Assembly: GCA_020850015.1 (NCBI GenBank)
Contig: JADZFF010000033.1
Coordinates: forward strand, 50 to 64,049
Reading direction: 5' to 3'
Source of the DNA: Bdellovibrionales bacterium
GTDB taxonomy: Bacteria; Bdellovibrionota; UBA1018; JADZFF01
DNA: 64,000 bases
Shown: positions 2,217 to 28,310 of the stretch, piece after piece
Position numbering within the stretch: the first letter of the stretch is position 1
Layout: every line of letters starts with the position of its first letter
Position numbers and translations under genes: made by a program
Notes under the pieces: model-generated
What the model was told of the DNA's origin: nothing
Databases searched by the model: none
Seen by the model: only the letters and a program-made list of their open reading frames with translations

Positions 2217-3071
2217 ATGTCGTTCTTTTCAAAGATTCTTACGGCTTTGGGTCTGGCGTTGGCCTTTGGGATCGCGGCGCAACCCGCGGCGGCCTTGCCC
2301 CCGGGCACGGGCTTCCAGATGCAGCCCGACGGCGTGCACGTGCCGATGATTGAAGTCTCCACCGGCGTGGAGGTGGCCTCCTCTGAAGAAGCGGCCGTTC
2401 AAGTGCTTCTGGGCTTCGAGTACCGCGGCGTGGAAGGCGTGAAAGAGGGCACCTACTGGGCCCGCGTTTACGTGGAAGGCGGGATGGATGTCATCGACGG
2501 CTCCGTGGGTAGCTTCCGCGTGGAGTTCACCCCCTACCGCGCGATCGGCGAATCGAATCCGGTGCCGATTTCCTGGGAGACGCGCCTTTTCAATACCGTG
2601 ATCGCGCACGACGAGCGAACCGGCCAGGATCTCGACGGCACGATCAAGCTCTTCGGCTTCCGCGGCGGGCTCTTTCTGCCCGCCTCCGATCCGGGCGACT
2701 TCGAAGCCATGATCGTCGTGGCGCTCGAGGCCTTGGGCGGCCACATCCGCCAGTTCGCCGAGCACGAGCTCGAAACTTTCTACGGCGCTTACGTGGCCGG
2801 GGCCTCGCTCGAAGCCACCTTCGGTTGGCAGCTCAACGAGGACTTCAAGATCACGGGCACCTTCGGCGTGGGCGGCGATCTCTCGATGGGCTCTTCGGGC
2901 GGCGACTTCACGGCGCTCGTCGACTCCGAGATGCACCTGAACTTCGTGCTCAGCTGGCGCAACATGATCGACTTCATCATCGGCGGATCGCTCGAGAACT
3001 ACGCCGACACGGGCAACGACCGCTCGGTGGGCGTGGCGAAGTTCCTCGCGAGCCTGCGGTTCCGGTTCTGA
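2217..3071 (+). CDS. Secreted protein, possible outer-membrane beta-barrel; first gene of the PLD1 operon
   Basis: GGAGG Shine-Dalgarno 5 nt upstream of the ATG at 2217. Classical signal peptide MSFFSKILTALGLALAFGIAAQPAAA and OMP-like C-terminus ...LASLRFRF. The stop lies 13 nt before the PLD1 start. Confidence 0.6.
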   Translation: MSFFSKILTALGLALAFGIAAQPAAALPPGTGFQMQPDGVHVPMIEVSTGVEVASSEEAAVQVLLGFEYRGVEGVKEGTYWARVYVEGGMDVIDGSVGSFRVEFTPYRAIGESNPVPISWETRLFNTVIAHDERTGQDLDGTIKLFGFRGGLFLPASDPGDFEAMIVVALEALGGHIRQFAEHELETFYGAYVAGASLEATFGWQLNEDFKITGTFGVGGDLSMGSSGGDFTALVDSEMHLNFVLSWRNMIDFIIGGSLENYADTGNDRSVGVAKFLASLRFRF

Positions 3072-3084
3072 GGGGGCGGCTCAG

Positions 3085-4920
3085 ATGATCCCCCTTCGCT
3101 CAGCGCTTCTGGTGTCAGTGGTCCTGGCCTCCGCTTTCGCCGGCCAGGCTCAGGCGGGCGGCCGCAGAGCGCCCCGGATCGATCTCAATGAGCTTGCCCG
3201 CTACTATGCGGAACAGTCCGGCGGCCTCGTGCCGCTGGCGCCCGGCGCCCATGGCCGCGGCGGGCACCTGCGTTTCACCTGGGACGAGCGCAAGCGGCCG
3301 AAGCGCATTCGCACGGTGCAGCCTTTGGACTACCACCTGAACCAGGGCCTGTTCGGCTTCGACGAGGAGCGGTTCCTCCGCGCCGAGGGCGCGGCCGATC
3401 TCGTGGATGCGCATTGGAGCTGGTACTCGCGCAAGGACTTCAACCTCTCCACCCAGCATCACGACCAGGACTACTACTACCTCGAAGGCTGGGAGCACCT
3501 CTTCCACCCTCCGGTGAAAGAGATGACGCTCCCGAAGGAGCGCTACTTCAAGGAGTTCACGCCCGAGGTTCCGCACCTGGCGAACTGGGCCGACGGTCAC
3601 GAGTACTTCAGCCCCGAGTTCCAGAAGAACATCGACCGGCTCACGGGCACGCAGCTCACCTACGGCAACCGTCTAACGATGCTCCCGAACAGCCAGGCTT
3701 ACGCGGCTAAGATGGATCTCGTGAAGCGTGCCCGGCGCTCGCTCTACGTCGGCGTGATGTTCTGGGCTTGCGACGCCACCTCGAGCGCGCTTCGCGACGA
3801 GCTCGTGAAGAAGATGCGCGAGGGCGTGGAGGTCCGCCTGGTCACCGAACGCTTCTATCGTGAGTTCCTGGGCCGCCGCTGCATCGACCGGATCGAGCAG
3901 CTGGGCATCCCCGTGCTCGTGATCGGCGACTCCTTCAACTCCGAAACCTCCACCTCCGCCTATCACCAGAAGTTCTGGATCCGCGACGGCGAGGAAGTGA
4001 TCCTGGGCGGCATGAACATCCTGGACTACGAGAACGAGGCCTCGGGCTTCAACGGGATGAACCGCGACACCGACGTGCGCGTGGTGGGCCCCTCCGCGAA
4101 GGACGCGCAGGCCTCTTTCATGCGCATGTGGAAGCGCTACTCCACGGCGCAGGCTCAGCGCGACTGGGCCGACGAGCGCCTGCGCGAGACCGAAGCCGAG
4201 CAGGCCGCGGAGGCCGCGCGCGGCGTACGCGGCCAAGCGAACTACGCCACCTGGTTGGGTTCGCCCGAGACGCGGATGAACGGCATCTGCCGCACGAACT
4301 TCCAGGGCACCATGGCCCGCGTGGAGCCGATCGCCCCGGTGGTGGAGGAGCACCTGCGCGCCGCGCGCAAGCTCACCGTGTTCTCCACTCCCGACATCAC
4401 CTTCAGCCTGGATGACCCCGCGAACGCCGAGCACCTCGATTCGCGCATCGCGCGCATCATGCGCCTCCTCACGGAGCGCAACTCGTCCACCGATCCGGTG
4501 CTCCGCATGCTCACGAACGGCGAGGCCGGGGGGGCGGGCGAGGTGTCGATCTGGATGCAGTACCGCACCATGGAGGCTCAGCAACACGGCAGCGCCTTCG
4601 CTGAGCAGTTCATGCGCCAGTGGAAGACCGTGGTGAGCCGCCGCGCCGCCGCCGGGAACCGGAAGCACTCCACCGAGGTGATGCACCAGAACCCGCAGTT
4701 CCGCGCCTACACGCACATGAACTACGTGCACGAGAAGGTGTTCCTCTTCGACCGGATCGCCTCGTTCATCAGTTCCTGGAACCTCGACCTGAACTCGGCC
4801 GACATCAACCACGAGGTCTCCGTGACCTGCCTGGACGAGAGCCTGCGCCAGCAGCTCGAGCATGAGCTGGCGCTCGATCTGGCGAACGCCGTGCCGATGG
4901 TGAGCAGGAACGGGAAATAG
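3085..4920 (+). CDS. Secreted phospholipase D superfamily protein with two HKD motifs (PLD1)
   Basis: Signal peptide MIPLRSALLVSVVLASAFAGQAQA. HKD motifs HQKFWIRDGEEVILGGMN and HEKVFLFDRIASFISSWN. Confidence 0.9.
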   Translation: MIPLRSALLVSVVLASAFAGQAQAGGRRAPRIDLNELARYYAEQSGGLVPLAPGAHGRGGHLRFTWDERKRPKRIRTVQPLDYHLNQGLFGFDEERFLRAEGAADLVDAHWSWYSRKDFNLSTQHHDQDYYYLEGWEHLFHPPVKEMTLPKERYFKEFTPEVPHLANWADGHEYFSPEFQKNIDRLTGTQLTYGNRLTMLPNSQAYAAKMDLVKRARRSLYVGVMFWACDATSSALRDELVKKMREGVEVRLVTERFYREFLGRRCIDRIEQLGIPVLVIGDSFNSETSTSAYHQKFWIRDGEEVILGGMNILDYENEASGFNGMNRDTDVRVVGPSAKDAQASFMRMWKRYSTAQAQRDWADERLRETEAEQAAEAARGVRGQANYATWLGSPETRMNGICRTNFQGTMARVEPIAPVVEEHLRAARKLTVFSTPDITFSLDDPANAEHLDSRIARIMRLLTERNSSTDPVLRMLTNGEAGGAGEVSIWMQYRTMEAQQHGSAFAEQFMRQWKTVVSRRAAAGNRKHSTEVMHQNPQFRAYTHMNYVHEKVFLFDRIASFISSWNLDLNSADINHEVSVTCLDESLRQQLEHELALDLANAVPMVSRNGK

Positions 4921-4958
4921 ATAGACCGGGCTCCCGGACCCTTGGCCCTGGGCTCGCG

Positions 4959-4981
4959 CACGAGAAAATCTCGTGTTTTTT
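4959..4981 (+). terminator. Rho-independent terminator candidate after PLD1
   Basis: Stem cacgag (loop aaaat) ctcgtg, followed by a run of six T, about 40 nt after the stop codon. Confidence 0.5.
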
Positions 4982-5058
4982 CCTTCGAGCGCGCTCTCGG
5001 CGGGATTTTCACCAGAAAACCTCGTGCGGCGCGCGGGTGGCGTTGATAGGGTCGGGGC

Positions 5059-5823
5059 GTGAGCAAGCAAGCCCCGAGTAAGGCCAGAGGCCGTTTAAGC
5101 GCGCGATCCTCCGCGCCCGCGCCGGCGTCTCGGCCCGCGCCCGCCGCTTCCGGCGCATTTCTGGCCGTCTCCGCCGGTCTGGGCTTCCTCGGCGCGGCGG
5201 TGAGCTCCTTTTACGCCGACCCGGCGGGGCATCTGCTGATCTGCAGGCTCGCGCTCGCCGCGCTCGCGGCCCGCGTGCTGCTCGCCGCGGCGATCCCGGG
5301 GCTCCGGCCCCGCCTCGCGAGCTCCGCCTGGCTGCTCGCGGGCGCGGGATTGGGCACGCTCGTGGCGCACCCCGCGATCTGGAACTGGGTGTTTCTGGCG
5401 CCCGCGGTGGTGCTGGCCGGAGTGGCCGCGCCTTTCGTGGCGCGCTCGCCCAGCGGCCCTGACGGGAACCAACTCCCCTTCGTACCGGAACGCGCGGCCG
5501 GGCGGGTGGGGGCCCTGTTCGTGGGCGCGGCGCTTTTGATCGGCAACGCCAACCATCTCCTCGACTTTAGCGAAGCACCGCTCGTGCGGGCGGAGTGGCT
5601 GGGCGTGGAGCCGGGCGGGTTCGGTGGGCACCTGATTCGGCTCACTCCGCGCGAACCCGTGGACCGGTTTTCCCCGGTGTGGCGCGCGCGCGGCCTGGGC
5701 GCGCTCGCGGAGCTCAGGCCCGGAGCGCCCGTGCTGGTGCGGCAGGGTGCCGGGCTCTTCGGCGCCGCCTGGCTTCGGGAGCTTCGGCCCGACGCCGGCC
5801 GCTCGGCGCCGTCAGGCTCCTGA
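5059..5823 (+). CDS. Hypothetical polytopic membrane protein between the two PLD paralogs
   Basis: GTG-initiated 254-aa ORF with several Ala/Leu-rich hydrophobic segments and no recognisable motif. Coding status rests on its position, strand and the absence of a better competing frame. Confidence 0.45.
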   Translation: MSKQAPSKARGRLSARSSAPAPASRPAPAASGAFLAVSAGLGFLGAAVSSFYADPAGHLLICRLALAALAARVLLAAAIPGLRPRLASSAWLLAGAGLGTLVAHPAIWNWVFLAPAVVLAGVAAPFVARSPSGPDGNQLPFVPERAAGRVGALFVGAALLIGNANHLLDFSEAPLVRAEWLGVEPGGFGGHLIRLTPREPVDRFSPVWRARGLGALAELRPGAPVLVRQGAGLFGAAWLRELRPDAGRSAPSGS

Positions 5824-5976
5824 CGATTGCGGGGCTCGCGCGCAAGACCTGTGAGCGGCGTGAGTTCTCTGTCAGAATTTGCCCCGCACGCCCTTGCCGG
5901 CTTGCATCGCTCATCTCTTCTCCCGCACACTTGAGGCAATACATCGGGGGGATGAATGGTTCCTTTTCACGGACGG

Positions 5977-7926
5977 ATGGGAACCGGTCGGGCACGGGTG
6001 TCCGCACTGGTTGGAAGAAAGTACGCCATGGCTCTGGCGGCCACGATGGCCGCGCTCCTGGCGAACGCCGGTTCGCCCGCGCTCGCGGCCGGGAAGAAGC
6101 GGCCCGAGCCCCCCGCGGGCTCAGGCCCGGTGACGATCATCCCCACGCCCCCGGGCGACACGCCGGCTCAGTCGGCCGCCCGCCCCGCGGTCACCGCCGC
6201 GATGGACGCGATGTGGATGAAGGCCGACCCGCCCAGCCCCATCGAGGGCCCGGGCGGCGAGGCCTGGACGGAGGAGACGGACCCTCCCATGGAGTGGCTG
6301 ATCCCCTACTACGACGCCGTGACCGGGGGCCTGATCTCGCCCGCGCCGGCCGCCGCCCCGGACACGCCCGCGCAGGATTACTTCCAGCTCGACGTGGAGG
6401 GCTTCCTGGGTCGCACCCGTCACGCCGACTTCGCCGAGGCCAAACGGGCCTTCTACGGCAACCTGGATTTCGATACCAAGCGCCAGAAGCACGAGGAGCC
6501 GTACTATTACATGGTGCCCTGGAAGCTCCTCTTCCACCCGCCCATCAAGCGGCTCTCACTCCCGCGCGCCCGCTACCATTCGGGCATGCAGGCCTGGGAT
6601 CCCGCGGCCCACGAGTCGCCCTACTTCGAGCCGCGCCTCCAGTGGGACATCGACTTCAAGACCGGCACTGAGATGACCTACGGGAACGAGCTGGAGCTCC
6701 GCCCCAACCAGAGCTCCTACCGCGAGCGCCTGCGCATGCTGCGCGAGGCGAAGAAGTACTTCTTCGGCACCGTGATGTTCTACACCTGCGACACCACGGG
6801 CAACGAGTTCCTCGAGGAGCTGATCCGCCGGAAGAAGGAAGGCATCGACGTGCGCATGATCGTGGAGGGGCTCTACGCCTACACGATCAATCGCAAGTGC
6901 ATCGACCGCATGATCAAGGGCGGCGTGGACGTGATCCGGGTGGACGACTTCTGGAAGCCCACCTCCTTCATCTCCGTGCTGCACAACAAGTTCTGGATCC
7001 GGGACGGCGAGGAGGCCGTGATCGGCGGGCAGAACTTCCACGATTTCGCCAACACCTCCGACGGCTTCCACCTCACGCGCGATACCGACGTGTGGGTCAA
7101 GCGCGGCCCCTCGGTGACGGATCTCGAGTACGAGTACCTGCGCCTCTGGAAGCGCTACGCCAAGAAGCGCAAGAACCAGCCCGCCGAGCCCTACCTTTCG
7201 GCCGTGGCCGCGAGGATCGAAAAGGAGCGCCAGACCCGCGTCCGCGGGCGCCTGAGCTACTCCTACTGGCTCTCTGACCCCGCGAAGCGCATGAACGGCA
7301 TCTGCCGCGTGATGGTGCAGGATCGCATGGCTTCCCGCCAGGCCATAGCGCCCCTCCTGATCGACTACATCAACGCGGCGAAGAGCCACGTGTTCATGAC
7401 CACGCCGAGCGTGAAGTTCAACAAGAAGGACAAGGTGAAGAAGCCCAAGCTCGAGGACGAGCTTTTCTTCGCCTACCAGCGCGCCGCGAACGAGCGGGGC
7501 GTGAAGCTCGATCTCGTCTCCAACGGACTGGCCGGCGGCATGGGCGACATGCAGAACTTCTTCGAGAAGTTCCTCGACTCGGACAGCCTCAAGAACAAGA
7601 AGCTCATCAAGAAGCTGATCCGGAGCCTGGGCGTGTCCATGAGCGAGAACGGCGCCGAGAAGGACCGCGACCACATGCTCAAGGTGCTGGAGAAGGTGCC
7701 GGGCTCGCGAGCCTGGGGCTACTTCCAGTTCCTGCACGCCAAGACCCAGCTCTTCGACCGCACGCTCGCCGGCGTGACGAGCTTCAACTGGGACGGGCAC
7801 TCCTCGCGCACGAACCACGAATCCGGGATTTTCTGTCTGGACCGCAAGCTCGTGAACCAGCTTGAGGAGCAGATGGTCATGGACCTCATCAACTCCGTGC
7901 CCATCGTGAGCCGCAACGGGTTTTAG
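5977..7926 (+). CDS. Secreted phospholipase D superfamily protein with two HKD motifs (PLD2, paralog of PLD1)
   Basis: HKD motifs HNKFWIRDGEEAVIGGQN and HAKTQLFDRTLAGVTSFN. It is collinear with PLD1 through the blocks YYY..LFHPP, TYGN, RMNGICR and VPIVSRNG. The start at MGTGRARVSALVGRKYAMALAATMAALLANAGSPALAA gives a charged n-region; an alternative ATG is at 6028. Confidence 0.9.
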   Translation: MGTGRARVSALVGRKYAMALAATMAALLANAGSPALAAGKKRPEPPAGSGPVTIIPTPPGDTPAQSAARPAVTAAMDAMWMKADPPSPIEGPGGEAWTEETDPPMEWLIPYYDAVTGGLISPAPAAAPDTPAQDYFQLDVEGFLGRTRHADFAEAKRAFYGNLDFDTKRQKHEEPYYYMVPWKLLFHPPIKRLSLPRARYHSGMQAWDPAAHESPYFEPRLQWDIDFKTGTEMTYGNELELRPNQSSYRERLRMLREAKKYFFGTVMFYTCDTTGNEFLEELIRRKKEGIDVRMIVEGLYAYTINRKCIDRMIKGGVDVIRVDDFWKPTSFISVLHNKFWIRDGEEAVIGGQNFHDFANTSDGFHLTRDTDVWVKRGPSVTDLEYEYLRLWKRYAKKRKNQPAEPYLSAVAARIEKERQTRVRGRLSYSYWLSDPAKRMNGICRVMVQDRMASRQAIAPLLIDYINAAKSHVFMTTPSVKFNKKDKVKKPKLEDELFFAYQRAANERGVKLDLVSNGLAGGMGDMQNFFEKFLDSDSLKNKKLIKKLIRSLGVSMSENGAEKDRDHMLKVLEKVPGSRAWGYFQFLHAKTQLFDRTLAGVTSFNWDGHSSRTNHESGIFCLDRKLVNQLEEQMVMDLINSVPIVSRNGF

Positions 7927-8022
7927 GGGGTTTCAGCAGGGGCGACGACACCAGCGGCCAGCTCGGCGACGGCAGGACATCCACTGCTCACCGTCGCCGG
8001 TCGGAGTGGACCTCACCGGGAT

Positions 8023-9072
8023 CTAGAGCAGGCTCGCCTGCACGCCCAGAGTCGCCGTGTTGAGCACGAGCGAGTTGCCTTGCAGCTCCGACTCGTAACG
8101 CGCGTCCGTGAGATCGAGCGTGATCGCCCAGCCCCACCTATTGGGTTTCGAGAGCAGCTGCACCCCGCCCCCGATCGCGAGCTCGCGATGGGAGAGCGAG
8201 ATGCCTTCGCGAATGTCGCCGATCGGGGCGTACTTGAGGTAACCGAACCAGCCCCGCCCCTCCTTGGGAAACTTCGCGGCCGAGAGAAAGAGCTGCGGCC
8301 CGGAAAGCAGGTCCACGCCGTACGCGCGGCCCTCGGTGCGCATCGTCCAGAGGTACCAGCCCGTGAGGAGTTTCCAGGTGGCCCCGGCCCACCTCGCGGG
8401 CAGGGTGAACCCGAAGCGGCCGTTGACACCCAGAAAGCGGACGCTGTTGATGGTGCTAGGCGAGTGTGTCAGGGACACGACGTTGAAAAAGATGTTGGCG
8501 CCGAGGTCGATCTTTCCGGGCAGGAGCGGATACGCGGCCACGAACTTCGGCGTGAGCGCCACCTCGGAGAGCCGGATGTTCCCGGGATCCTCGCGGTAGG
8601 CGAGGTAAGTCCACCCGAGGCCCGCGCTCAGGGTCAGGCGCCGCGCTCCGGGCTTCCGCTCCTTCTCGGGCGCGTTTTTCCGCCATGCGCCCTCGTGCGA
8701 GCGAACGAGCACGACCTCGGTCTGGATCTCGCCAAGGGGGCTCACGGCCACGAAGGTCACCTTCGTGATCTCGGAGCGCACGGGCACGACGATGTCGAAC
8801 TGCCCCGTGCTCATGAGCTCGATGCGCTGCCGAGGAGCCGATAGGAGCCAGTTTTTCCTCTCGAAACGGCCCTGAAGCCTGATCTTGAGCGGGGCTTCGC
8901 CCGGTTTCTCGCCGGGCTCACGGAGGTACGAAAGCCCCTTCGAAATCCAGGTCAGTCCCTGGATGCGGCTCCGGGTCTCGGGCGGCCGAATCAGCACGGC
9001 GTCGGTGGGCTCTTCGGCCGCGCGCGCATCGGCGCAGAAGAGAGCCAGAGCCGCGAGCAGGAGCGCGCTCAT
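8023..9072 (-). CDS. Secreted protein with a beta-barrel-like C-terminal half (putative outer-membrane protein)
   Basis: Signal peptide MSALLLAALALFCADARA and an alternating hydrophobic pattern in the C-terminal 200 aa. Its ATG overlaps the stop of the upstream gene (ATGA at 9069-9072). Confidence 0.6.
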   Translation of the reverse strand: MSALLLAALALFCADARAAEEPTDAVLIRPPETRSRIQGLTWISKGLSYLREPGEKPGEAPLKIRLQGRFERKNWLLSAPRQRIELMSTGQFDIVVPVRSEITKVTFVAVSPLGEIQTEVVLVRSHEGAWRKNAPEKERKPGARRLTLSAGLGWTYLAYREDPGNIRLSEVALTPKFVAAYPLLPGKIDLGANIFFNVVSLTHSPSTINSVRFLGVNGRFGFTLPARWAGATWKLLTGWYLWTMRTEGRAYGVDLLSGPQLFLSAAKFPKEGRGWFGYLKYAPIGDIREGISLSHRELAIGGGVQLLSKPNRWGWAITLDLTDARYESELQGNSLVLNTATLGVQASLL

Positions 9073-10169
9073 CGCAGGTTTCCCTGAGGCGCCGCCGCCT
9101 CGCGCAGCGCTGGGTGGTTCTTGAGCTGGGGGTGTTTCTCGAGGAAAGCCTTTCTGACGAGCTCGCGCTCCCGCTCGCGCCTGAGCTCGCGCAGGAGCTG
9201 CAGCTCCAGGAGCCAGGGCTGCACCTGAGTCGGATCGAGCTTGCGGCTCTGGCGGAAGTGCTCGAGCGCGTCGGGCTTCCGCCCGGCCCGAAGCGCCGCC
9301 TCGCCTTGCGCGAAGCGCCGCTCTGAGGGGTTCTGATCTCCGGGCTCGGCCGCTTCCATCGCCTCGAGATCCAGGAGCGCCTCGTAGTAGGGGCCCATCC
9401 CCCGATACAGGAGGCCGCGGTAATCGGCCGTGCCTTCGAGCTCCCGCACCAGGATCTCGTCGAAAGGAGTGGGAGTTTTGTGGCGAGGAGGCCTGAGCGC
9501 GGTTGCGTAACGGACCCAATGCACGCCGGGCGCGCTCCCTTGCCCTCTGGTTTTCACCCGCCGAAGCGACTCGAAGGCCGCATCCGCCGACCTCAGCACA
9601 TCGATGTGAAGCTCATCGGCGTCTTCCGAGCAGGCCAGCGCGGAGAAAAGAAACTTCGGGTCGCCCCGGACTGCCCGGTTCGCCGCGCCCACTCCGAACT
9701 CCTGGCAGCGCGGGCTTACCCAGAAGAAGGGGCGCGCGACCTGGGTCTTGAATCGGATGCGCACGTTCGCGGGCAGGGCCTTGCCCACGCGGACGGCGAA
9801 GGCCGGCGCGTCGAAGGGGCCGTTCGCGCTGACCACCACCGTGTCCTTGCTCTCCTGCCTGTGGGACACGAAAACAGCGGGCCGGGCCGCGGGAGGAACC
9901 GGCGCCACCACCTCTGTCACCTCCGGGGGCAGGGTGATCCGGATCGAGGCCATGGGGCTCTCGAGCGTGCCGCCCCGACCGGGCAGGGGAACGGCGCCCC
10001 AGCCCCAGGTCACCGAGCTCTTCCAGGGCCGAGGCAGCCACTGCTTCCCGGCCTGAACCTGGATCGAGACCTCGGTGGGAGGAGGAACCGGGGAGGTGAG
10101 CGCGGCCGGGTCTTCCTCAGCCAGCGCGCGCAGGGGCGCCGATGCTCCGAGCACTAGAGCGCAAACCAA
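9069..10169 (-). CDS. Secreted protein with a TPR-like C-terminal region; start codon uncertain
   Basis: Hydrophobic N-terminus ...LVCALVLGASAPLRALA and a TPR-like helix pair (ALRAGRKPDALEHFRQSRKLDP). It is translationally coupled to 8023-9072. The listed start is TTG, and the frame is open for 24 more codons upstream. Confidence 0.6.
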   Translation of the reverse strand: MVCALVLGASAPLRALAEEDPAALTSPVPPPTEVSIQVQAGKQWLPRPWKSSVTWGWGAVPLPGRGGTLESPMASIRITLPPEVTEVVAPVPPAARPAVFVSHRQESKDTVVVSANGPFDAPAFAVRVGKALPANVRIRFKTQVARPFFWVSPRCQEFGVGAANRAVRGDPKFLFSALACSEDADELHIDVLRSADAAFESLRRVKTRGQGSAPGVHWVRYATALRPPRHKTPTPFDEILVRELEGTADYRGLLYRGMGPYYEALLDLEAMEAAEPGDQNPSERRFAQGEAALRAGRKPDALEHFRQSRKLDPTQVQPWLLELQLLRELRRERERELVRKAFLEKHPQLKNHPALREAAAPQGNLR

Positions 10170-10312
10170 GGAGGCGGATAGTGAGCTGAGCTTCAGGCGC
10201 CGAATATTTCCCCCAGGTCCCAGGATCGCATGAAAAGGGCACTAACGCATCGGAACTTCAGGTGAATCTTGCCTATTGGTCACATGAGGAACGCGGGCTA
10301 GTGTGCCCCCAT

Positions 10313-10558
10313 ATGGGTGCTTACTTTCCGGCGGCGTTTTTCATCCTCCTGGGCTGGGCTTTTTGGTCGTTCCCGAAGATCGTGGCGGCTTTCGCCGCCG
10401 CGGGCTGTATCGGCTTCGGCCTGGCCTATGGGCTGATCGTCTGGCGGCTTCGGGGGGCGGCCCGCCGAACCCCATCCTTTCGAAACGTCACGTTGGTGAT
10501 GAGTCGGCGGGGCGACGTTTGGACCCACGGTGGCGGGGCCTCAGGCCCTCAGTCCTGA
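10313..10558 (+). CDS. Small hypothetical membrane protein
   Basis: The ATG at 10313 gives MGAYFPAAFFILLGWAFWSFPKIVAAFAAAGCIGFGLAYGLIVW, which is two TM helices. There is no other support. Confidence 0.3.
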   Translation: MGAYFPAAFFILLGWAFWSFPKIVAAFAAAGCIGFGLAYGLIVWRLRGAARRTPSFRNVTLVMSRRGDVWTHGGGASGPQS

Positions 10559-10596
10559 CTTGATGAGTCAAGCATCCCTGGGGTAAGACCCGGGGG

Positions 10597-15233: not shown

Positions 15234-15699
15234 TCTCCGTGGCGATTACGCGGGCCAGCTCGGAGGCGGCGTCCTCGGAGCGATTTTCGCACTTTTTTCC
15301 CGAGGATTCGCAGGTTCTGAGCGGTGAGAAATCCGCCATCCACGAGTAGTTGTTCGACCTGAGCCGGGCCTGAGGCGCGGTGTCGGAGAGCACGGGCGTA
15401 TCATTCCACCGAGAGTCCGGGATCGCCGTTTCTCCCAATTCCTTGCACCTGGCCCGAATCACCTTGGCTATCGCCCTGCAACCGGACTCGCCAAGAGGAC
15501 TGAACTCCTTTGCGCCGCCCACGGTGGAACGCGTGGCGGTACAGGACGGCGTCTTCGTATTGCTCTCTTTTGGTCCGAGCAGCCGGTATCTTTCGCCGAC
15601 CGTCCATTCGTTCAGCGCGGAGCACTCGGCGAAGGAGGCAGCTCGCGCCGACGGCACGATCAGAAGCAGAGCGAGAAGGCCGAGGATCCCCGCTCTCAT
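15202..15699 (-). CDS. Small secreted Cys-containing protein, partner of the HExxH protein
   Basis: Signal peptide MRAGILGLLALLLIVPSARA and 7 Cys. Its ATG overlaps the stop of 15696-17063 (ATGA). Confidence 0.55.
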   Translation of the reverse strand: MRAGILGLLALLLIVPSARAASFAECSALNEWTVGERYRLLGPKESNTKTPSCTATRSTVGGAKEFSPLGESGCRAIAKVIRARCKELGETAIPDSRWNDTPVLSDTAPQARLRSNNYSWMADFSPLRTCESSGKKCENRSEDAASELARVIATEINRALDAAKR

Positions 15700-20427: not shown

Positions 20428-20437
20428 CGTCGTCACC

Positions 20438-21940
20438 TCAGCGGTCAATGAAGAGCGCCGCGAGCGGGAACTTCTTCAGGGCTTGGTCCTTCGCACCGCG
20501 TTTGGCGTCCGCGAAGGCTTTGGCGATCATCTGGTTCGCCGTGTTTTGAACTTCCTGGGCGGCCTGCTGCGTGGGCTGGCCGTCCGTGAGCCCGATCTGC
20601 ACGTTCGTGGCGAAGGGCACGAGCGCGCCGGCCCGGCGGTCGAAGACCTCGATGGAGGTTTTCAGGTTCTCCATCTTCGCGGTCTGAGCCGTCAGGTTCG
20701 TCACGATATCGAAGCTCGTCATGTGCACGCGGATCGGAACCCGCAGGTGCGTCCAGTACGAGGCCGTGCTGCCCTTGATCGCGTCGCCGCCCAGGTAGGG
20801 CGTGAGGCGCCAGGCCGAGTTGGCGGTATTGAGCTTCATGCGGCGTCTGAAGGGGTGGTAGCCCTCCCAGGTGCCGAAGTTGAAGTTCAGGCGCATGTCC
20901 CGAAGCTCGTTCTTGAGCAGGTGCTCGAAGCTCACGAGCATCATCGGGTAGTTCGTCGACGTGTCGTTGGCCGTGAAGCCGCCGGGCTGGGGCACACCGG
21001 CGTGGGTGATCTCGGCCGTGGGCGAGGTCGTGGCGGGCTCCAGGCGCTGAAGCAGGGGCTGCATGCCCAGGAGCGCCTGCAGGCGGATCGTGCTCGCGCC
21101 CGGCTTCACCGTCAGGTTGATCAGGAAGGCCACGGGGTAAACGTAGGGCGGCACGAGGTGCGGCGTTTCGTCGTAAGCGTTTTGGAGGACGATGGCCGTA
21201 TTGTGCTGAGCCACGTCGTTCACGCGGTTTCCGAGGTTCCCCTTGAGGCCGGTGACGATGGGGTAACCCTCTTCGTCGTAGAGCCAGTGCTTCACGCCCC
21301 AGTCGCGCACGGGCGTGCGGCGTTTGGTGCTGAAGCCCATGCGGCGCGGGGAGTAGCGCGAGCCACGTTCCCAGGCGGCCTTCGCGGCCGCGTCGGTGGC
21401 GGGCGCCTTGTCCCAGGGCGCGATCAGGAAGGTCAGGTGACGGGGGCCGGCGTTCGTGGCGAGCGCGGCCTCGATCTTCGGCAGCGCTTCCTTCAGGTGG
21501 CCCGCGGCGGTGCGGAGCACGCGCTCGAGCAGGTTCACCGGGGCCGAGGCGCCGTCGAGGTCCATGCGCATCAGTTCCGAGAAGGCCGGGATGAACTGCT
21601 GCGAGAGGATCTCGTCGATCGTCTGCCCGTACACCGCGGCGAGCTGGCCGCTCTGGGGTTTCACCTGATCGCGCAGCAGGTAGAGGCGCGGATCGGTGGG
21701 CGCGGACGCGCCCACGGCCGGCTTCTGCGAAGGCAGAGCGCGGGAGCGGTCGAGCGCCTCCCAGGCATTGTCATCGACGAACAGGTGAGGTCTGACCGGC
21801 GACTGCGTCATCCGGTACCGGAGGACTTCCGCCCGAGCTGAGTGAAGCCCGGCGAATACCCCCGACAAGACCGCAAAACACCCCAATGCCGCAAGCGGCC
21901 GAACGCGGTTGAATAAGGACATAATGCGGCGAGCTATCAT
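20438..21940 (-). CDS. Secreted protein of unknown function, co-operonic with PLD3
   Basis: Signal peptide ...LAALGCFAVLSGVFAGLHSARA. The stop is 10 nt upstream of the PLD3 start. No recognisable motif. Confidence 0.65.
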   Translation of the reverse strand: MIARRIMSLFNRVRPLAALGCFAVLSGVFAGLHSARAEVLRYRMTQSPVRPHLFVDDNAWEALDRSRALPSQKPAVGASAPTDPRLYLLRDQVKPQSGQLAAVYGQTIDEILSQQFIPAFSELMRMDLDGASAPVNLLERVLRTAAGHLKEALPKIEAALATNAGPRHLTFLIAPWDKAPATDAAAKAAWERGSRYSPRRMGFSTKRRTPVRDWGVKHWLYDEEGYPIVTGLKGNLGNRVNDVAQHNTAIVLQNAYDETPHLVPPYVYPVAFLINLTVKPGASTIRLQALLGMQPLLQRLEPATTSPTAEITHAGVPQPGGFTANDTSTNYPMMLVSFEHLLKNELRDMRLNFNFGTWEGYHPFRRRMKLNTANSAWRLTPYLGGDAIKGSTASYWTHLRVPIRVHMTSFDIVTNLTAQTAKMENLKTSIEVFDRRAGALVPFATNVQIGLTDGQPTQQAAQEVQNTANQMIAKAFADAKRGAKDQALKKFPLAALFIDR

Positions 21941-22019: not shown

Positions 22020-23417
22020 ATGGAAATAAGAGATGAACGGGGCATGCGAGCAGGTCGCGCGGGGGCGATCGCGTGCGCGGGTCTGAGTCTGTTCCTGAGT
22101 TTGAGCCTGGCTCCGGCCCAGGCTTTGATGATGGAGCTCCCCCCGAGCCTGGCCCCCGTGATGCTTTCGGAGACCGTTCCCTTCACGTTCACGCCGAATG
22201 CCTACTCCGCCGCCGATTACCGCCTGGAGTGGGTGGGCGAGGCGTTGCCCGGCGTGACGGTCCGCCTGGGCGAGAAGAGCCTGGAATGGGTGCGCGTGCG
22301 CGAGGTCCTGGATCTGCCGCGGGCCACCGCCGTGGTGGAGGTGCGCGACGCCGAGGGCGCCCAGGTGCTCCACGCGGGATATGTGCAGCCTCTCGCACGC
22401 GTATCGGGCGGGACTTGGAGCGCCCATGTCCCCGTGGCCCTGCTCAGTGGTTCTGACAATCCCATCGAGTTGCGCGTGCGGCGCGGAGGGCGCGAGCTCA
22501 AGGGCACGCTCGTTTCGAAGCTCGTGCCGCGGCCGGGAAACGAGACGCAGCTCCTGTTCGACGCCACCTGCTCCCACCCGCGCGTGCGCGCCGAGACCGT
22601 GAGCGGCCTCAGGCCCGACACCTTCGTCTACGTGGGCTGCCGTTTCGTGCACACGAAGGGCGATTCGCACCCGCACCCCTCGTTCGAGCTCTACGTCTAC
22701 TGGGACGGGGCGGGGCGTTCGATCCGGGTGGACGGAGTGCCCACGCCTTCCTCTTCAGTGGGCGTCTGGGCGCTCAAGCTCGGCCCGAAGCCCGGCTACG
22801 TGGATCTCCAATCGGGCGAGCAGAAGATCCGCGTCGCTTATTCGGTTCCGGAGCGCCTGCGGCGGCTCACCCTGGGGCTGGGCGTCGGGCCCTACGGATA
22901 CGCGTTCCAGGACAAGGGCGAGTCGCTCGAGACCTTCGCCCCGCTCGCCACCTTGTACGGCTCCTATTTCCTCTCGGAGTCCATGCGGGTGACGATGTTC
23001 AATGCCACCGCGCTTCACCGGCTCTGGTACACGAACCAGGGCTTCTACCTTTGGAGCGAGCAGATGCGCGTGTTCGACTCGCGCTTCTCCATGGTGCTGC
23101 TCTTCGGTCTGGATGTGCTCGTATTCCGCACCCGAGGCGCGGGAGGCGACGTGCACTGGCGCATCGGAGGCCCACAGGGTATCGAGTTCGCGTTCCGCGA
23201 CTTCCCGATCCGGCGGCACGACGTGAGCTTCGGCGCCTTCATCGCGCCCAAGCTCGTGAGCGAACACTTCTACTACAACGCCTGGGTGCGCTGGGGCCCG
23301 CCTGAGTGGTTCGTGGAGTTCAATTACCTCTCGTGGCAGGAAGAGCTCCCGGACCAGCTCGTCTACTCGCGGTCGATCGGCCTGAGCGTCGGGATGCCGC
23401 TCATTCGGCTGCTCTGA
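22020..23417 (+). CDS. Secreted protein with a beta-barrel-like C-terminal half (putative outer-membrane protein)
   Basis: Signal peptide ...AIACAGLSLFLSLSLAPAQA. The C-terminal half alternates hydrophobic and aromatic residues. By eye it resembles 8023-9072 (RRLTLxxGxG, GPQ, ...LL end). Confidence 0.6.
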   Translation: MEIRDERGMRAGRAGAIACAGLSLFLSLSLAPAQALMMELPPSLAPVMLSETVPFTFTPNAYSAADYRLEWVGEALPGVTVRLGEKSLEWVRVREVLDLPRATAVVEVRDAEGAQVLHAGYVQPLARVSGGTWSAHVPVALLSGSDNPIELRVRRGGRELKGTLVSKLVPRPGNETQLLFDATCSHPRVRAETVSGLRPDTFVYVGCRFVHTKGDSHPHPSFELYVYWDGAGRSIRVDGVPTPSSSVGVWALKLGPKPGYVDLQSGEQKIRVAYSVPERLRRLTLGLGVGPYGYAFQDKGESLETFAPLATLYGSYFLSESMRVTMFNATALHRLWYTNQGFYLWSEQMRVFDSRFSMVLLFGLDVLVFRTRGAGGDVHWRIGGPQGIEFAFRDFPIRRHDVSFGAFIAPKLVSEHFYYNAWVRWGPPEWFVEFNYLSWQEELPDQLVYSRSIGLSVGMPLIRLL

Positions 23418-24345: not shown

Positions 24346-24762
24346 TCAGTGAACGGTTTCGGTTCCGCCGAGCGTATCGGCCATCAGGGCGCGGAGCATC
24401 TCCTGGATGTGGGGCGTGGTCTTTCCGGCGCCGCCCGCCAGCATGCGGAAGAGCTCGGCGTCCAGACTCAGGAGTTGGCAGAATTCGTCCCGGGTGTAGG
24501 GCAGAGACTTGAGCAGGAACTGAACTTCCTTCGCGCTGAGCTCGTCCGTCTTCCGGGAGAGGTGGGTCATGATCAGGCGGTTCCATTGCTCCACGAGGAG
24601 TCCCGGAAGGAAGATCTCGTTGCAGCTTGGGCATTCCTCGATCGGCGTCTCGCCCTCGATCGTGACGAGGCCCATGGGGGTAGGGTAGGCGAAGTCCTTC
24701 ACGGTCTTCGAAACCACGCCCGGCTTTCCACAGGCTTCGCAGGTGTTCGGCTGCACCGACAT
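24346..24762 (-). CDS. MqsA/YgiT-type zinc-ribbon plus HTH (XRE-like) protein, solitary
   Basis: N-terminal CEAC...CPSC zinc ribbon followed by a helix-turn-helix-like region (LSAKEVQFLLKSLPYTRDEFCQLLSLDAELFRML), the same architecture as MqsA antitoxin. No adjacent toxin ORF. Confidence 0.7.
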   Translation of the reverse strand: MSVQPNTCEACGKPGVVSKTVKDFAYPTPMGLVTIEGETPIEECPSCNEIFLPGLLVEQWNRLIMTHLSRKTDELSAKEVQFLLKSLPYTRDEFCQLLSLDAELFRMLAGGAGKTTPHIQEMLRALMADTLGGTETVH

Positions 24763-24903
24763 GAGTCCGAGCCTAGCACAGCCTCGCGGGATGCTTGGAC
24801 TTTCCCCAGGGATGGGATGATTTGACTCATTTGGTTGCCTGGTGGTAGACGCATAGCGTCATCTCAAGGGGTGAGGCGACCGAAAGCAAAAAGGGGTTAG
24901 TCC

Positions 24904-26895
24904 GTGAAGCACCGTCGGGCATTTTTTTGGACCGCGTTCGCCGCAGCTTTCATCGGCTCCGTTCATTCGCAAGAGGCGTTGGCACGCGCCGGCGCCCGGC
25001 TTCGGCCCCATGCCTCCGCGCCCGCAGTGGAGCGCTGGATCTCGGGCCCCTTTCTGCTGCGCCTTCCCGCGCAACTTCGCCGGGCCGTCCAGAACGTGAA
25101 GGTCCAGGTGGGCGACTTCCGCGAGAGCGGAAACCCGCGCTGCGCGCGATGGGAGGAAGGCGGTCGGACCCTCCAGGTGAACGCGGCCTGCGCGGGTGCC
25201 GAGGACTTGAGTTGGTTCGCCAGTGCGGCCGGCGCGGAAGGGCAGCCCGCGCCCACGCGGCTCCAGGGCAGACTGGTGCAGGCCGCCGTGGAGGCCTGGG
25301 GGCGCACCGCCCCCCGATTCCGCGATCGGGCGGCGCGTCGGGAGGTCTCCGATCAGGATTTCTTCCAGTCCCCCATCACCTTGGGCGTGAACATCGATCA
25401 GCATCCGGACGCTGTGTTTCTCGATTTCTGGTACCGCGCCACCTGGGCGGTGCTCACCGACCCGCAGGTCCATCTGAAGCATCCGGGCCTGACGCGATAT
25501 CTGATGAACGGTTTCCTGGAGTGGGGCGAGCTTCGCCAGGCCGAGCGCGTGGATCTCGATGCCCTCGCGGCGCAGGAGGCGGCTGAGTCCGGCACCCGGG
25601 GCCGCGTGCGCCACCTTGTCGATCCGGCCGAGGCCCTTTACGCCCGTATGGACCTCATCCGCCAGGCCCGCAAGACGATCCACACCGGGTACTTCACCGT
25701 CTGGAACAACGACGTCTTCGGCCGCCAGTTCCTGGGGCTCCTTCTCCAGAAAGCCCGCGCGGGCGTGAAGGTGAAGCTCATCGTCGACGGGCGCGGGTTC
25801 CTTCATACCCGCAACGACTGGCTCCAGGAGCTCGTGGAAGCCGGCGCCGAGGTGAAGGTGTGGAACCCGGTGCTCAACTCGCGCCTCTCCATCCTGGGCT
25901 CGCTCGTGGCCTATCACGACAAGATCCTGCTCGTGGACGGCAAGTCCTTCATCACCGGCGGCCGCAACATCGGCGATCGCTACTTCCTCCGCCAAGGCGA
26001 GAAGGACGGGCGCGTGTTCTGGGACACGGACGTGGCCGTGGAATTCGATCGTATGCCGATCGCGCTTCTCCAAGCCTTCAACTCGGAGTTCTACGCCGGG
26101 GTGGCGAAATCCGTTCCGAAGGAGATGTTCGGCAACTGGCGCTCGCGCGAGCCCGAGATGATGCGTGCCATCCGCGCGCTCGACGACCGCGTGGCGAACG
26201 AGACGCTTTCGCCCGAGACCCTGCGCTGGCACCCCGAGGTGGACCGCATGAAGAGCCTGGTGGGCAAGCCCGCCTATACGCTCTGGACCTCGGATGAGCA
26301 GGTGCCCGTGCGCGTGCTCGATAACTTCACCCGATTCGGCGCTCAGAAGCAGCTCTCGAACGAGCTCTTCCGGATGATGGACGAGGCCGAGAGCGAGATC
26401 CTGATCCAGAACCCCTACCTGGTGCTCACGCCCGAATGCGGCGACCGCCTGGAGGCCGCGGCCCGCCGGGGCGTGAAGGTGCGCTTCAGCGTGACCTCGC
26501 CCACAAGCACGGACAGCTTTCTCACCCAGAGCGTGCTGACCTTCGAGTGGCAGAAGATCGCGGCGAAGGTGCCGGGTTCGGAGATCCACGCCGCGCTGGG
26601 GCCCGAGCAGCTCCACGCGAAGATCTTCGTGTTCGACCGCAAGGTGGCGGTGGTGGGCAGCTACAACATGGACGCCATGTCGCAGGACCGCAACTCGGAG
26701 ATCGCGCTCGAGGTGAATTCGCCCGCCTACGCAGGCGAGGTGGCCGCCGAGATCGACCGCTTCATCCGCGAGCAGAGCGTGCATTTTGATCCCGTCACGG
26801 GCAAGGGGCCCGAGCAGATCCCGAACAGCGACGAGGAGATCGAGCGCCTGGAGTTCTACTACTCCATCGCGCGTTGGGTGCGTCCGCTGCTATGA
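24904..26895 (+). CDS. Secreted phospholipase D superfamily protein with two HKD motifs (PLD4)
   Basis: GTG start and signal peptide MKHRRAFFWTAFAAAFIGSVHSQEA. HKD motifs HDKILLVDGKSFITGGRN and HAKIFVFDRKVAVVGSYN. Confidence 0.9.
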   Translation: MKHRRAFFWTAFAAAFIGSVHSQEALARAGARLRPHASAPAVERWISGPFLLRLPAQLRRAVQNVKVQVGDFRESGNPRCARWEEGGRTLQVNAACAGAEDLSWFASAAGAEGQPAPTRLQGRLVQAAVEAWGRTAPRFRDRAARREVSDQDFFQSPITLGVNIDQHPDAVFLDFWYRATWAVLTDPQVHLKHPGLTRYLMNGFLEWGELRQAERVDLDALAAQEAAESGTRGRVRHLVDPAEALYARMDLIRQARKTIHTGYFTVWNNDVFGRQFLGLLLQKARAGVKVKLIVDGRGFLHTRNDWLQELVEAGAEVKVWNPVLNSRLSILGSLVAYHDKILLVDGKSFITGGRNIGDRYFLRQGEKDGRVFWDTDVAVEFDRMPIALLQAFNSEFYAGVAKSVPKEMFGNWRSREPEMMRAIRALDDRVANETLSPETLRWHPEVDRMKSLVGKPAYTLWTSDEQVPVRVLDNFTRFGAQKQLSNELFRMMDEAESEILIQNPYLVLTPECGDRLEAAARRGVKVRFSVTSPTSTDSFLTQSVLTFEWQKIAAKVPGSEIHAALGPEQLHAKIFVFDRKVAVVGSYNMDAMSQDRNSEIALEVNSPAYAGEVAAEIDRFIREQSVHFDPVTGKGPEQIPNSDEEIERLEFYYSIARWVRPLL

Positions 26896-26902
26896 TGGCG
26901 AG

Positions 26903-27724
26903 GTGAACCCCGCCTCCGCTCCCATCGGCGTTTTCGACTCCGGCCTCGGCGGCCTGACAGTGCTCAAGGCGCTCCTCGACCGTCTTCCGGACGAGCGCTT
27001 CGTCTACGTGGGCGACACCGCGCGTCTGCCCTACGGCACGAAGTCGCGCTCCACGATCCGGCGCTACCTCCAGCAGAACGTGGAGTTCCTGCTCAAGAGA
27101 GGGGTGAAGGCGATCGTGGTCGCCTGCAATTCAGCGTCCTCCGCCCTGGAGCCGGGCGACTCCTGGAGCGTGCCCCTCTACGAGGTCATCGGCCCAGGCT
27201 CGCGATCCGCGCTCGCGGTCACGAAGAACCGGAGGGTAGCGGTGCTCGCCACGCGCGCGACGGTGGCGGGTGGAGCGTACCCAAGCAAGCTGCAGGAGCT
27301 GTCTCCGGGCCTGACGGTATTCCAGGAGGCCTGCCCGCTGCTCGTGCCCATCGTGGAAGAGGGCATGGAGGCTGATCCTCTTGCGCGCGAGCTCGTGAGG
27401 CGCCACTCCAGCGTGGTCGTGGACCAGGCCGCCGACACGGTGATCCTGGGCTGCACGCATTACCCAGTGCTCGGGGAGGTTTTCCGCCGCATGCTCGGCG
27501 ACGCCGTGACGATCGTGGATTCCTCTCGGACGCTCGCGGATGAGCTACAGGGCGATTTGCGCTCGGGTCGGGTCGCAGCGGCCGCGGACGGCCGGGTTGG
27601 GGCGGGCGCGAGCCCCCGGGTGGAGCTGCTGGTCACGGACCTCGGCCCCAGGGCGGACGAACTTGCCGCTCGTTTTTTGGCGCCCCACGGCGCCGAGCCT
27701 GCCCGCCTCGTGGACTTGGGCTAG
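26903..27724 (+). CDS. murI: Glutamate racemase
   Basis: IGVFDSGLGGLTV, VVACNSAS and LGCTHYP motifs. The GTG at 26903, 8 nt after the PLD4 stop, gives a typical 273-aa length. Confidence 0.93.
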   Translation: MNPASAPIGVFDSGLGGLTVLKALLDRLPDERFVYVGDTARLPYGTKSRSTIRRYLQQNVEFLLKRGVKAIVVACNSASSALEPGDSWSVPLYEVIGPGSRSALAVTKNRRVAVLATRATVAGGAYPSKLQELSPGLTVFQEACPLLVPIVEEGMEADPLARELVRRHSSVVVDQAADTVILGCTHYPVLGEVFRRMLGDAVTIVDSSRTLADELQGDLRSGRVAAAADGRVGAGASPRVELLVTDLGPRADELAARFLAPHGAEPARLVDLG

Positions 27725-27746
27725 ACCCGGCCCTATTCTAAAAGGG

Positions 27747-28310
27747 ATGCTGCAAGGCTGTGTTTTCTTACGCCTGCTCGCGGCCCTGGCGGTGGCGTTC
27801 GCTTGCGTGGCGCCCGCGGGTCCGGCCCTCGCCGCCGCGGGCAAGGGTTTCCTGGGGGTGCAGGGCGGGATCGCCATGCCCACCAATGCCAGCGCGGTCT
27901 TCGCCTTCGGTTTGAACGGCCTTTGGCAGAGATCGCCACGCTACGGCATCGGGGCCTTCCTGCTCATGTACGGCGCGCGCCTGGAAAGCAGCACCGAGGC
28001 GGGGCAGGTGATCTCGGATTACTCGGTGTCCCTCTGGGGCGTCGAGGCGAACTACTTTTTCGGGGGTGGGCTGCGCGGCGGCGCGAGGCTCGGAATCATG
28101 AACTCTTCTGGCGACTACAGCGCGAGCGACGCTTCCTCGGAGATCAACATCGCGGAGAACCAGGATCCGCTGTTCCTCATGCCGCTCGTGGCCTACGACT
28201 ACCGCTTCGGGAAGGTCTCGATCGGCGGCGAGATGGGCTACTTCCTGGGCATGGGCTCGGGCGCGCCGTCCGGGTTCCTCTTCATGATCGCGCCGAAGTT
28301 CTGGTTCTGA
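27747..28310 (+). CDS. Small outer-membrane beta-barrel protein (OmpA-like/OMP_b-brl type)
   Basis: Signal peptide MLQGCVFLRLLAALAVAFACVAPAGPALA, alternating beta-strand pattern, Gly/aromatic girdle residues, and a terminal ...APKFWF. Confidence 0.65.
   Translation: MLQGCVFLRLLAALAVAFACVAPAGPALAAAGKGFLGVQGGIAMPTNASAVFAFGLNGLWQRSPRYGIGAFLLMYGARLESSTEAGQVISDYSVSLWGVEANYFFGGGLRGGARLGIMNSSGDYSASDASSEINIAENQDPLFLMPLVAYDYRFGKVSIGGEMGYFLGMGSGAPSGFLFMIAPKFWF

Follow-up and report, generated by a model that had tools for sequence, protein, structure and literature searches.

The window analysed here is a 64-kb stretch of contig JADZFF010000033.1 from a Bdellovibrionales bacterium, and it carries four genes for exported enzymes of the phospholipase D (PLD) superfamily, PLD1 to PLD4. 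An earlier reading of the letters alone (the sequence-only reading) had proposed that each enzyme is paired with a barrel-like or exported envelope protein and that the pairs form a single lipid-attack or remodelling system. We find that one of the pairs, a gene for a 12-stranded outer-membrane β-barrel followed directly by PLD1, is a two-gene cassette that recurs in the same order and on the same strand in other phyla. The region as a whole consists of several independent envelope-lipid units and not of one system: one conserved cassette, one rare operon and otherwise unrelated neighbours. The cassette and its presumptive end are made up of the following features.

2217 to 3071, forward strand: 12-stranded outer-membrane β-barrel, partner of PLD1 (family A4, homologous to family A2; AlphaFold2, Foldseek and hhalign).
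3085 to 4920, forward strand: PLD1, an exported PLD with two HKD motifs and a type-I signal peptide (AQA/GG); PF13091 in two stretches plus PF00614.
4958 to 4976, forward strand: terminator-like hairpin with a T-run, 3' of PLD1 (consensus scan, pattern match only).

The AlphaFold2 model of the 2217-3071 product has 12 long strands and was obtained with good scores (predicted local distance difference test, pLDDT, of 87 and predicted template-modelling score, pTM, of 0.80). Along the strands a hydrophobic face alternates with a polar or charged one, and the protein ends in LRFRF, with an aromatic final F. The features by which an outer-membrane β-barrel is recognized, namely a signal peptide, a closed antiparallel barrel, alternating faces and an aromatic end, are thus all found in this protein. 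A Foldseek comparison with the PDB gave FapF, OmpG, CymA and KdgM at template-modelling (TM) scores of about 0.45 and a best probability of 1.00; the matches shown were outer-membrane barrels almost without exception, with FapF on top. Neither Pfam nor NCBIfam gave a match for the sequence, and homologues are scarce, with 18 cluster representatives among 1.84 billion, which constitute alignment A4.

Between the barrel gene and the start of PLD1 there are 13 nucleotides, and the putative hairpin at 4958-4976 would close a bicistronic unit of the two genes. The HKD motifs of PLD1 lie at residues 294 and 549. Homologues of PLD1 (n = 78) come nearly throughout from metagenome-assembled genomes (MAGs) or metagenomes, and one of them (P0001, from a Bdellovibrionota/Bdellovibrionales MAG) is 100% identical. 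In a 26-sequence alignment of the family that PLD1 shares with PLD2 (the PLD1/2 family) the HxKxxxxD motifs are invariant, and the family has an additional conserved N-terminal region of about 190 residues. The family profile aligned with Escherichia coli ClsC with an hhalign probability of 98.3% over 358 columns that take in both HKD halves, at about 23% identity in the catalytic core, and by this likeness PLD1 is assigned to the ClsC/ClsO branch of the superfamily. Sequence searches of the PDB with the PLD1/2 profile and with PLD4 found remote PLD-fold matches only, and gave nothing useful for PLD1, PLD3 or the 20438-21940 family.

To examine the arrangement in other genomes, we scanned one genome per species with the PLD family alignment A1, which yielded 18 loci in at least five phyla, spanning Ignavibacteriota, Bacteroidota, Calditrichia, Myxococcota, Oligoflexia and Bdellovibrionia. 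At the loci from Ignavibacteriota, Bacteroidota and Calditrichia a protein of about 350 residues that ends in RYYLGxNxYxRR is encoded directly upstream of the PLD on the same strand (alignment A2), and these genes, like the window barrel, have no Pfam match. Because the A4 and A2 profiles align with each other (hhalign probability 96.5%, E 8.7e-10, 139 columns) and a hidden Markov model (HMM) built from A4 alone picks up every A2 gene at E values from 1e-7 to 1e-17, we treat the two as one barrel superfamily. Of the 20 assessable PLD1/2-family genes, 15 have an A2/A4 barrel gene as their immediate upstream neighbour in the same orientation, a tally that leaves out two further loci cut at a contig end and that is descriptive and not an unbiased statistic, given that the synteny sample is PLD-seeded and MAG-based. 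The carriers of the cassette are Ignavibacteriota, Bacteroidota, Calditrichia and Bdellovibrionota. The junctions are tight, with a 4-bp overlap in L004 and gaps of 3-14 nucleotides in L007, L008 and the window. In the reciprocal test, begun from the barrel side, the genes for the barrels P0089 and P0092 each overlap by 4 bp with a truncated open reading frame (ORF) on their downstream side, which starts with a signal peptide and the ELxxYY...SGG motif of the PLD1/2 family. Tightly linked, co-oriented genes that are kept together across phyla usually encode proteins that interact or function together.

A lipobox cysteine ends the signal sequence in about 62 of the 68 full-length PLD1/2-family homologues, a count made partly by eye, and on that ground most members of the family are predicted lipoproteins; the exceptions without the cysteine are only four Bdellovibrionota-type proteins. 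The most conserved motif of the A2/A4 barrels, GGxx(L/M)P(A/L)S..G, falls between strands 6 and 7 of the 2217-3071 model, where it would form a periplasmic turn if the N-terminus is periplasmic; on that assumed topology it would fit a docking site, which we take as a weak pointer. The A2 barrels also have an almost invariant YDPFGPENAPDHTGQGSGGV motif just after the signal peptide (residues 42-61 in L004, for example), which the A4 barrels of Bdellovibrionota lack and which could be a plug or docking peptide.

On its other side the window barrel has as its divergent neighbour a gene (753-2042, reverse strand) for a 429-residue membrane protein of the FA_hydroxylase family (PF04116). The same divergent arrangement beside the barrel is seen at positions 1-1066 of L001. 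We considered this gene as a further part of the cassette and rejected it, for it adjoins the barrel in the window and L001 only and not at the loci from other phyla; the gene could encode a lipid-modifying companion particular to this lineage.

The remainder of the region was judged by the same standard. Genes were picked in the window, which has about 67% G+C, by third-position GC bias (GC3), because the plain ORF list is full of overlapping spurious frames. Four PLDc_2 (PF13091) proteins score above the Pfam cut-off (3085-4920 and 5956-7926 on the forward strand, 17815-20448 on the reverse strand and 24904-26895 on the forward strand). A motif scan found two HxKxxxxD motifs in each, which makes all four two-HKD members of the PLD superfamily, and each begins with a hydrophobic, signal-peptide-like segment. 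The clustering of four such genes, at a density in 25 kb far above chance, was correctly seen in the sequence-only reading, and the neighbouring ORFs that it named are all present, with coding-type GC3 bias in every case save 8023-9072. The signal peptides are type-I-like and have no lipobox cysteine, so that in this respect the four enzymes differ from the lipoprotein ClsO. Against the NCBIfam cardiolipin synthase equivalogs (ClsA, ClsB and bacterial Cls) they reach at best 60-105 bits, where the cut-offs are 281-787 bits, and we class them by these scores as relatives of those families and not members. PLD1 and PLD2 are tandem paralogues (35% identity, E 4e-111), and PLD3 and PLD4 are separate subfamilies. 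An anti-phage or BREX-type role for the PLDs was considered and rejected on account of the signal peptides on all four proteins.

No Pfam or NCBIfam family was assigned to any of the partner genes proposed in the sequence-only reading, even at permissive Pfam thresholds (E up to 5). Exported proteins without a Pfam match make up a large share of the genes in this region and, because they are so common here, an exported neighbour beside each PLD counts for little by itself. The pairings are judged by their conservation in other genomes alone. We consider it probable that most of the proposed pairs involve no coupling at all, the neighbours of PLD2, PLD4 and the ceramidase, together with 22020-23417, being ordinary envelope genes of this common kind. 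PLD2 has the following surroundings.

5956 to 7926, forward strand: PLD2, paralogue of PLD1 in a barrel-less clade (PF13091, HKD motifs and tree).
8023 to 9072, reverse strand: exported protein with a C-terminal 10-stranded barrel (family A3; AlphaFold2 and Foldseek).
9069 to 10169, reverse strand: exported protein with weak TPR matches below the Pfam cut-off (Pfam and hhalign).

The real start of PLD2 is likely to be near 6028 (MALAATMAALL...). In a neighbour-joining tree it groups with the second PLD of L001, the nearest relative, and with the PLDs of L014, L016 and L018, so that the clade takes in loci from Myxococcota, Oligoflexia and Bdellovibrionia in addition to L001. The gene 8023-9072 is convergent to PLD2, and in L001 a histidine-kinase-like gene comes after PLD2 and no homologue of 8023-9072 is present there. 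A gene of the PEMT/ICMT methyltransferase family lies between the two PLD paralogues of L001 (5615-6190, reverse strand), and none is found in the corresponding interval of the window (5823-5956). The PLD gene of L014, a Myxococcota MAG, lies between a gene for a GH6 glycoside hydrolase and one for a phosphoesterase of PF04185, the phospholipase C / acid phosphatase family (the three genes at 6548-7771, 7917-9698 and 9705-11171), a neighbourhood that suggests a degradative role for the barrel-less PLD clade.

The longest ORF at 8023-9072 failed the GC3 filter and is backed by an NCBI-annotated protein that is 100% identical (P0079). Its AlphaFold2 model, built on a shallow alignment of five sequences and held with moderate confidence, has an overall pLDDT of 58; residues 147-348 reach about 75-80 and form 10 strands, and the N-terminal part is below 50. 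Foldseek matched it to OpcA, OmpT, Pla, NalP and a Legionella porin, which are 10- to 12-stranded barrels, and to FadL only at a TM score of 0.2-0.25. The marks of an outer-membrane barrel are thus present in the C-terminal 200 residues only. The 9069-10169 gene overlaps it by 4 bp in the same operon, and residues 133-201 of its product resemble the N-terminal domain (PECxK...LYVGLSC) of the longer A3 proteins (hhalign probability 87%, E 4e-6; A3 HMM E 1.8e-7); the pair may be a split or partly duplicated form of a single protein of 460-480 residues. The family is rare, with four homologues in 5.8 billion proteins, and four of the five other members have no PLD nearby, as seen in three contexts (L021, L022/L023 and the P0081 contig).

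The fifth member argues in the other direction. In L002 a protein of the 8023 family (2693-3988) is encoded in the exact upstream partner position of a PLD1/2-family gene (4156-5970), whose product is sister to the PLD1 clade in the neighbour-joining tree. We ruled out that the L002 barrel is a divergent A2/A4 orthologue: the A3 profile shows no relationship to the A2 and A4 barrels, and for that reason we regard it as a different family in the same position. This looks like a non-orthologous replacement of the barrel in the PLD partner position.

A second exported protein near the PLD genes had been proposed as a paralogue of 8023-9072 on the basis of blocks shared by eye. The C-terminal 190 or so residues of this protein, encoded at 22020-23417, are strand-rich and barrel-like by eye, and the RRLTL and GPQ motifs are collinear in the two proteins, 114 residues apart in 8023-9072 and 103 in 22020-23417, which is suggestive only of a possible remote relationship. 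The proposed paralogy reached no significance in BLASTP (E 0.43), in hhalign with the 8023 family profile (probability 1.7%) or with a C-terminal HMM (3.1 bits, a score matched by 3 of 300 shuffles). The gene is divergent from the PLD3 operon, in which we find the second conserved arrangement of the region.

17815 to 20427, reverse strand: PLD3, an 870-residue exported two-HKD PLD with an N-terminal extension of about 350 residues (PF13091 and HKD motifs).
20438 to 21940, reverse strand: exported protein of unknown fold, immediately upstream of PLD3 (homologue search and synteny).
22020 to 23417, forward strand: exported protein of unknown family, divergent from the PLD3 operon (sequence comparison).

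The start of PLD3 is likely to be the ATG at 20427, the ORF of 877 residues running to 20448; in the numbering of that ORF the HKD motifs are at residues 495 and 738, and the signal peptide is MKTIHTLFLTLAVSASLLGSPASQA. Homologues of PLD3 are found in L024-L027. A metagenome scan with PLD3 gave only three short contigs without the upstream side, and the pairing was therefore tested from the side of the partner. The 20438-21940 protein has only two homologues besides itself in 5.8 billion proteins. One of them, in L027 (54% identity), is followed after 7 nucleotides by a PLD3 homologue (44% identity, 317 residues present), and the P0085 contig has the same layout, with the downstream gene cut. 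These layouts point to an operon that is shared with one sequenced relative and, probably, with another; all the genomes concerned are closely related. In L027 the divergent position is taken by a T2SSF gene, and no homologue of 22020-23417 is present. The PLD3 partner does not end in an aromatic residue, shows no alternation of faces that would suggest barrel strands and matched nothing in Pfam or the PDB, and it may be a chaperone, activator or inhibitor of PLD3. Further along on the reverse strand, 15696-17063 encodes a cysteine-rich exported protein of 455 residues that contains an HExxH motif (HEIAH) and matches no Pfam family, and that may be a novel secreted metalloprotease.

Since it is exported, lacks barrel features and is tightly coupled to PLD3, the 20438-21940 protein would suit a periplasmic inhibitor or chaperone, and it is the one point in favour of a toxin-immunity arrangement in which the neighbours shield the producer from its own lipases, as Tli does for the type VI effectors Tle5/PldA; we find this improbable for the region, given that the PLDs carry Sec signal peptides and not type VI features, that no type VI genes occur among the genes scanned against Pfam, that the partner of PLD1 is a transmembrane barrel and not an immunity-protein fold, and that the cassette is also present in non-predatory phyla.

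The surroundings of PLD4 are as follows.

24904 to 26895, forward strand: PLD4, exported two-HKD PLD (PF13091 at 5e-35).
26903 to 27724, forward strand: likely glutamate racemase of the MurI type, with a GTG start at 26903 (PF01177 and the IGVFDSGLGGLTV motif).
27747 to 28310, forward strand: small exported protein of 187 residues with C-terminal PKFWF (sequence inspection; no Pfam match).

PLD4 is the closest of the four to E. coli ClsC (25% identity over 424 residues, E 4.5e-19). Between it and 27747-28310, whose product is probably a small outer-membrane barrel, sits the likely murI, a housekeeping gene, assigned as such by the IGVFDSGLGGLTV motif (IGVFDSGLGGL). Divergent and just upstream of PLD4, a gene at 24346-24762 (reverse strand) encodes a protein of 138 residues with two CxxC pairs and weak zinc-ribbon matches, which may be a small regulator. 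Beyond the small exported protein, 28615-31770 (reverse strand) encodes a protein of 1051 residues with a DUF2961 domain and a weak GH43-like match, and belongs to no clear family. The fifth pair of the sequence-only reading, a ceramidase coupled to a small barrel (42304-42900), does not stand as a secreted hydrolase: the "ceramidase" (42735-43616, forward strand) is a polytopic membrane enzyme of the PF05875/PAQR type, in which the domain begins at residue 76 of the long ORF and translation probably begins close to the stop codon of 42304-42900. An α/β hydrolase is encoded in the adjoining region (41322-42431, reverse strand).

PLD2 and PLD4 appear to be stand-alone exported PLDs, and their barrel-like neighbours are probably coincidental. 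What remains of the proposed system is a recurring hydrolase-plus-barrel pairing for one of the four PLDs, that of 2217-3071 with PLD1, conserved across phyla, and for PLD3 an exported operon partner that shows no barrel features. No such partner is established for PLD2, with its barrel-less clade and convergent neighbour, or for PLD4, with the likely murI in between, and with 22020-23417 not conserved in L027 a single system of four PLD-barrel pairs is not supported. The barrel predictions fared unevenly, 2217-3071 being confident, 8023-9072 moderate and limited to residues 147-348, and 20438-21940 without barrel features. Co-occurrence in other genomes was seen for the PLD1 barrel cassette and the PLD3 operon, for the 8023 family in L002 only, and not for 22020-23417 in L027.

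The explanation that we favour, with about even confidence, is that the barrel and PLD of the core cassette (2217-4920) work jointly at the outer membrane and that the other units are independent. It starts from the observed gene families, barrel fold and cross-phylum synteny with tight junctions. Under this explanation the barrel and the PLD would be produced jointly and assemble with each other at the outer membrane, where the barrel would dock the PLD and possibly pass the PLD or its substrate across, and the PLD would cleave or swap the head groups of phospholipids in that membrane. On the analogy of ClsO, a non-predator would act in this way on lipids of its own; in the predatory Bdellovibrionota lineage the anchorless, duplicated PLDs are perhaps turned towards the lipids of the prey.

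Several points weigh against joint action. The barrel-PLD complex is a proposal drawn from synteny and fold, and the sequence does not tell a hydrolase from a transferase. The genes of two more remote members of the barrel superfamily (P0097 and P0100) have no PLD gene beside them and, because of this, the barrel superfamily is to be seen as wider than the cassette and not PLD-exclusive. The PLD2 clade (the second PLD of L001, L014, L016 and L018) has no detected upstream barrel, PLD1 of the window has no lipid anchor, unlike most of its family, and the sampling behind the tally of 15 in 20 has the bias already described. The PLD3 pairing, the other one that is conserved, is based on three closely related sequences. 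Finally, ClsO works in E. coli without a dedicated barrel, so that none is needed in principle (PMC12846801).

A more specific possibility is that the barrel is a dedicated export pore, a single-component translocon that takes the PLD or its lipoprotein form to the surface or medium, in the manner of an autotransporter with passenger and barrel in separate genes or of FapF/Slam-type systems. The best Foldseek match, FapF, is a 12-stranded protein-secretion barrel, the barrel and PLD genes are tightly coupled, and lipolytic enzymes fused to translocator barrels, such as EstA and PlpD, are known. Release of a lipase would moreover profit a predator, and a commentary on the ClsO work states that the route across the outer membrane is unknown. 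However, the TM score is only about 0.45 and the generic porins OmpG, CymA and KdgM match equally well; the partner proteins have no match to the DUF560, Autotransporter, ShlB/TpsB or POTRA families that would mark Slam/type 11, autotransporter or two-partner secretion; and the lumen of a 12-stranded barrel is too narrow for a folded enzyme of 65 kDa. An acidic stretch after the lipoprotein cysteine serves as a signal for surface export, and the Bacteroidota-type PLD lipoproteins show no obvious signal of this kind. On balance we regard an export pore as unlikely.

Somewhat less likely still is a substrate or product channel for nutrient scavenging, in which the barrel takes up the products of the PLD (head groups, phosphatidic acid or phosphate) or feeds lipid to it. 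The residues predicted to line the lumen have polar or charged side chains, which would suit a pore filled with water, the Foldseek matches include the substrate-specific channels KdgM, CymA and OmpG, and the PLD of L014 is set beside the PF04185 phosphoesterase in a catabolic context. That locus, however, belongs to the barrel-less clade, so that its catabolic context is one without a barrel. Nor does the barrel resemble FadL/TodX: there is no Toluene_X match in Pfam, and the 2217-3071 model has 12 strands and no hatch domain. No inner-membrane transporter or catabolic genes recur around the cassette.

Returning to joint action at the outer membrane, the nearest precedent is ClsO of Acinetobacter baumannii and other Proteobacteria, a cardiolipin synthase that is a lipoprotein of the outer membrane and is exposed at the surface. 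It shows that outer-membrane lipids can be substrates of PLD-family enzymes that for a long time were annotated as secreted phospholipases (Herrera et al., PNAS 2026, PMC12846801). ClsO and the cassette enzymes are alike in being exported, in having two HKD motifs and a size of about 60 kDa, and in their relation to ClsC, and ClsO is a lipoprotein, as most PLD1/2-family homologues are predicted to be; this likeness was judged through the E. coli ClsC sequence, to which the similarity is remote, and through the published description of ClsO. The differences are that the PLD1/2 family is only about 23% identical to the ClsC core, lies below the NCBIfam Cls cut-offs and has the extra N-terminal region of about 190 residues, that the window copies lack a lipobox, and that the reports of ClsO are from Proteobacteria, whereas the cassette has its carriers among Bacteroidota, Ignavibacteriota, Calditrichia and Bdellovibrionota. 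The cassette also has a dedicated barrel gene, and none is reported in the ClsO paper (PMC12846801).

Other known couplings resemble the cassette in part. EstA (type Va), PlpD (type Vd) and FapF, the top structural match, share with it the genetic tie between a lipid-active enzyme and a small barrel of about 12 strands; in the cassette, however, barrel and enzyme are separate polypeptides with the barrel gene first, there is no match to POTRA, autotransporter or FapF sequence families, and the structural similarity is generic (TM score about 0.45). In the MlaA-OmpC/F system a lipoprotein works with a barrel in the phospholipid homeostasis of the outer membrane, and in PldA (OMPLA) and PagP the barrel is itself the enzyme. 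The concept of a lipoprotein and a barrel that together handle outer-membrane phospholipids is common to MlaA-OmpC/F and the cassette, but there is no sequence relation or demonstrated structural relation to any of these, and their barrel is a general porin or an enzyme and not a dedicated, co-transcribed partner. The E. coli ClsC-YmdB pair is alike in that a PLD-family cardiolipin synthase is encoded next to an upstream partner gene, and ClsC depends functionally on YmdB; YmdB, however, is a macrodomain protein of the cytoplasm and ClsC is not an exported enzyme, whereas the partner in the cassette is an outer-membrane barrel.

In the literature on Bdellovibrio, PLD and the outer membrane and on HKD/barrel gene neighbourhoods, in a coverage with most subscription journals outside it, we came upon no account of the cassette. 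PLD-family enzymes that are exported and work at the outer membrane are already known, as are couplings between enzymes and barrels; the two-gene arrangement of barrel and PLD, together with its barrel family, is apparently undescribed.

For the locus itself, these data replace the picture of a four-part lipid-attack system with that of separate units, one of which is a concrete two-gene system from phyla whose envelope biology is poorly studied. Enzymes that remodel outer-membrane lipids beyond PldA and PagP have been recognized only recently, ClsO having been described in 2026, and the cassette could reveal how PLD-family enzymes are positioned at the outer membrane or moved across it. An uncharacterized barrel family at the same time gains its first functional hypothesis. 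In its boldest and rather improbable form, this hypothesis would make the 12-stranded A2/A4 barrel a dedicated partner that carries the PLD to the surface or activates it, a minimal two-gene module for surface display or secretion, of which the Bdellovibrionota version would be adapted, through loss of the anchor and duplication of the PLD, for use against prey membranes. If true, such a module would be a candidate route by which lipid enzymes of the ClsO type cross the outer membrane.

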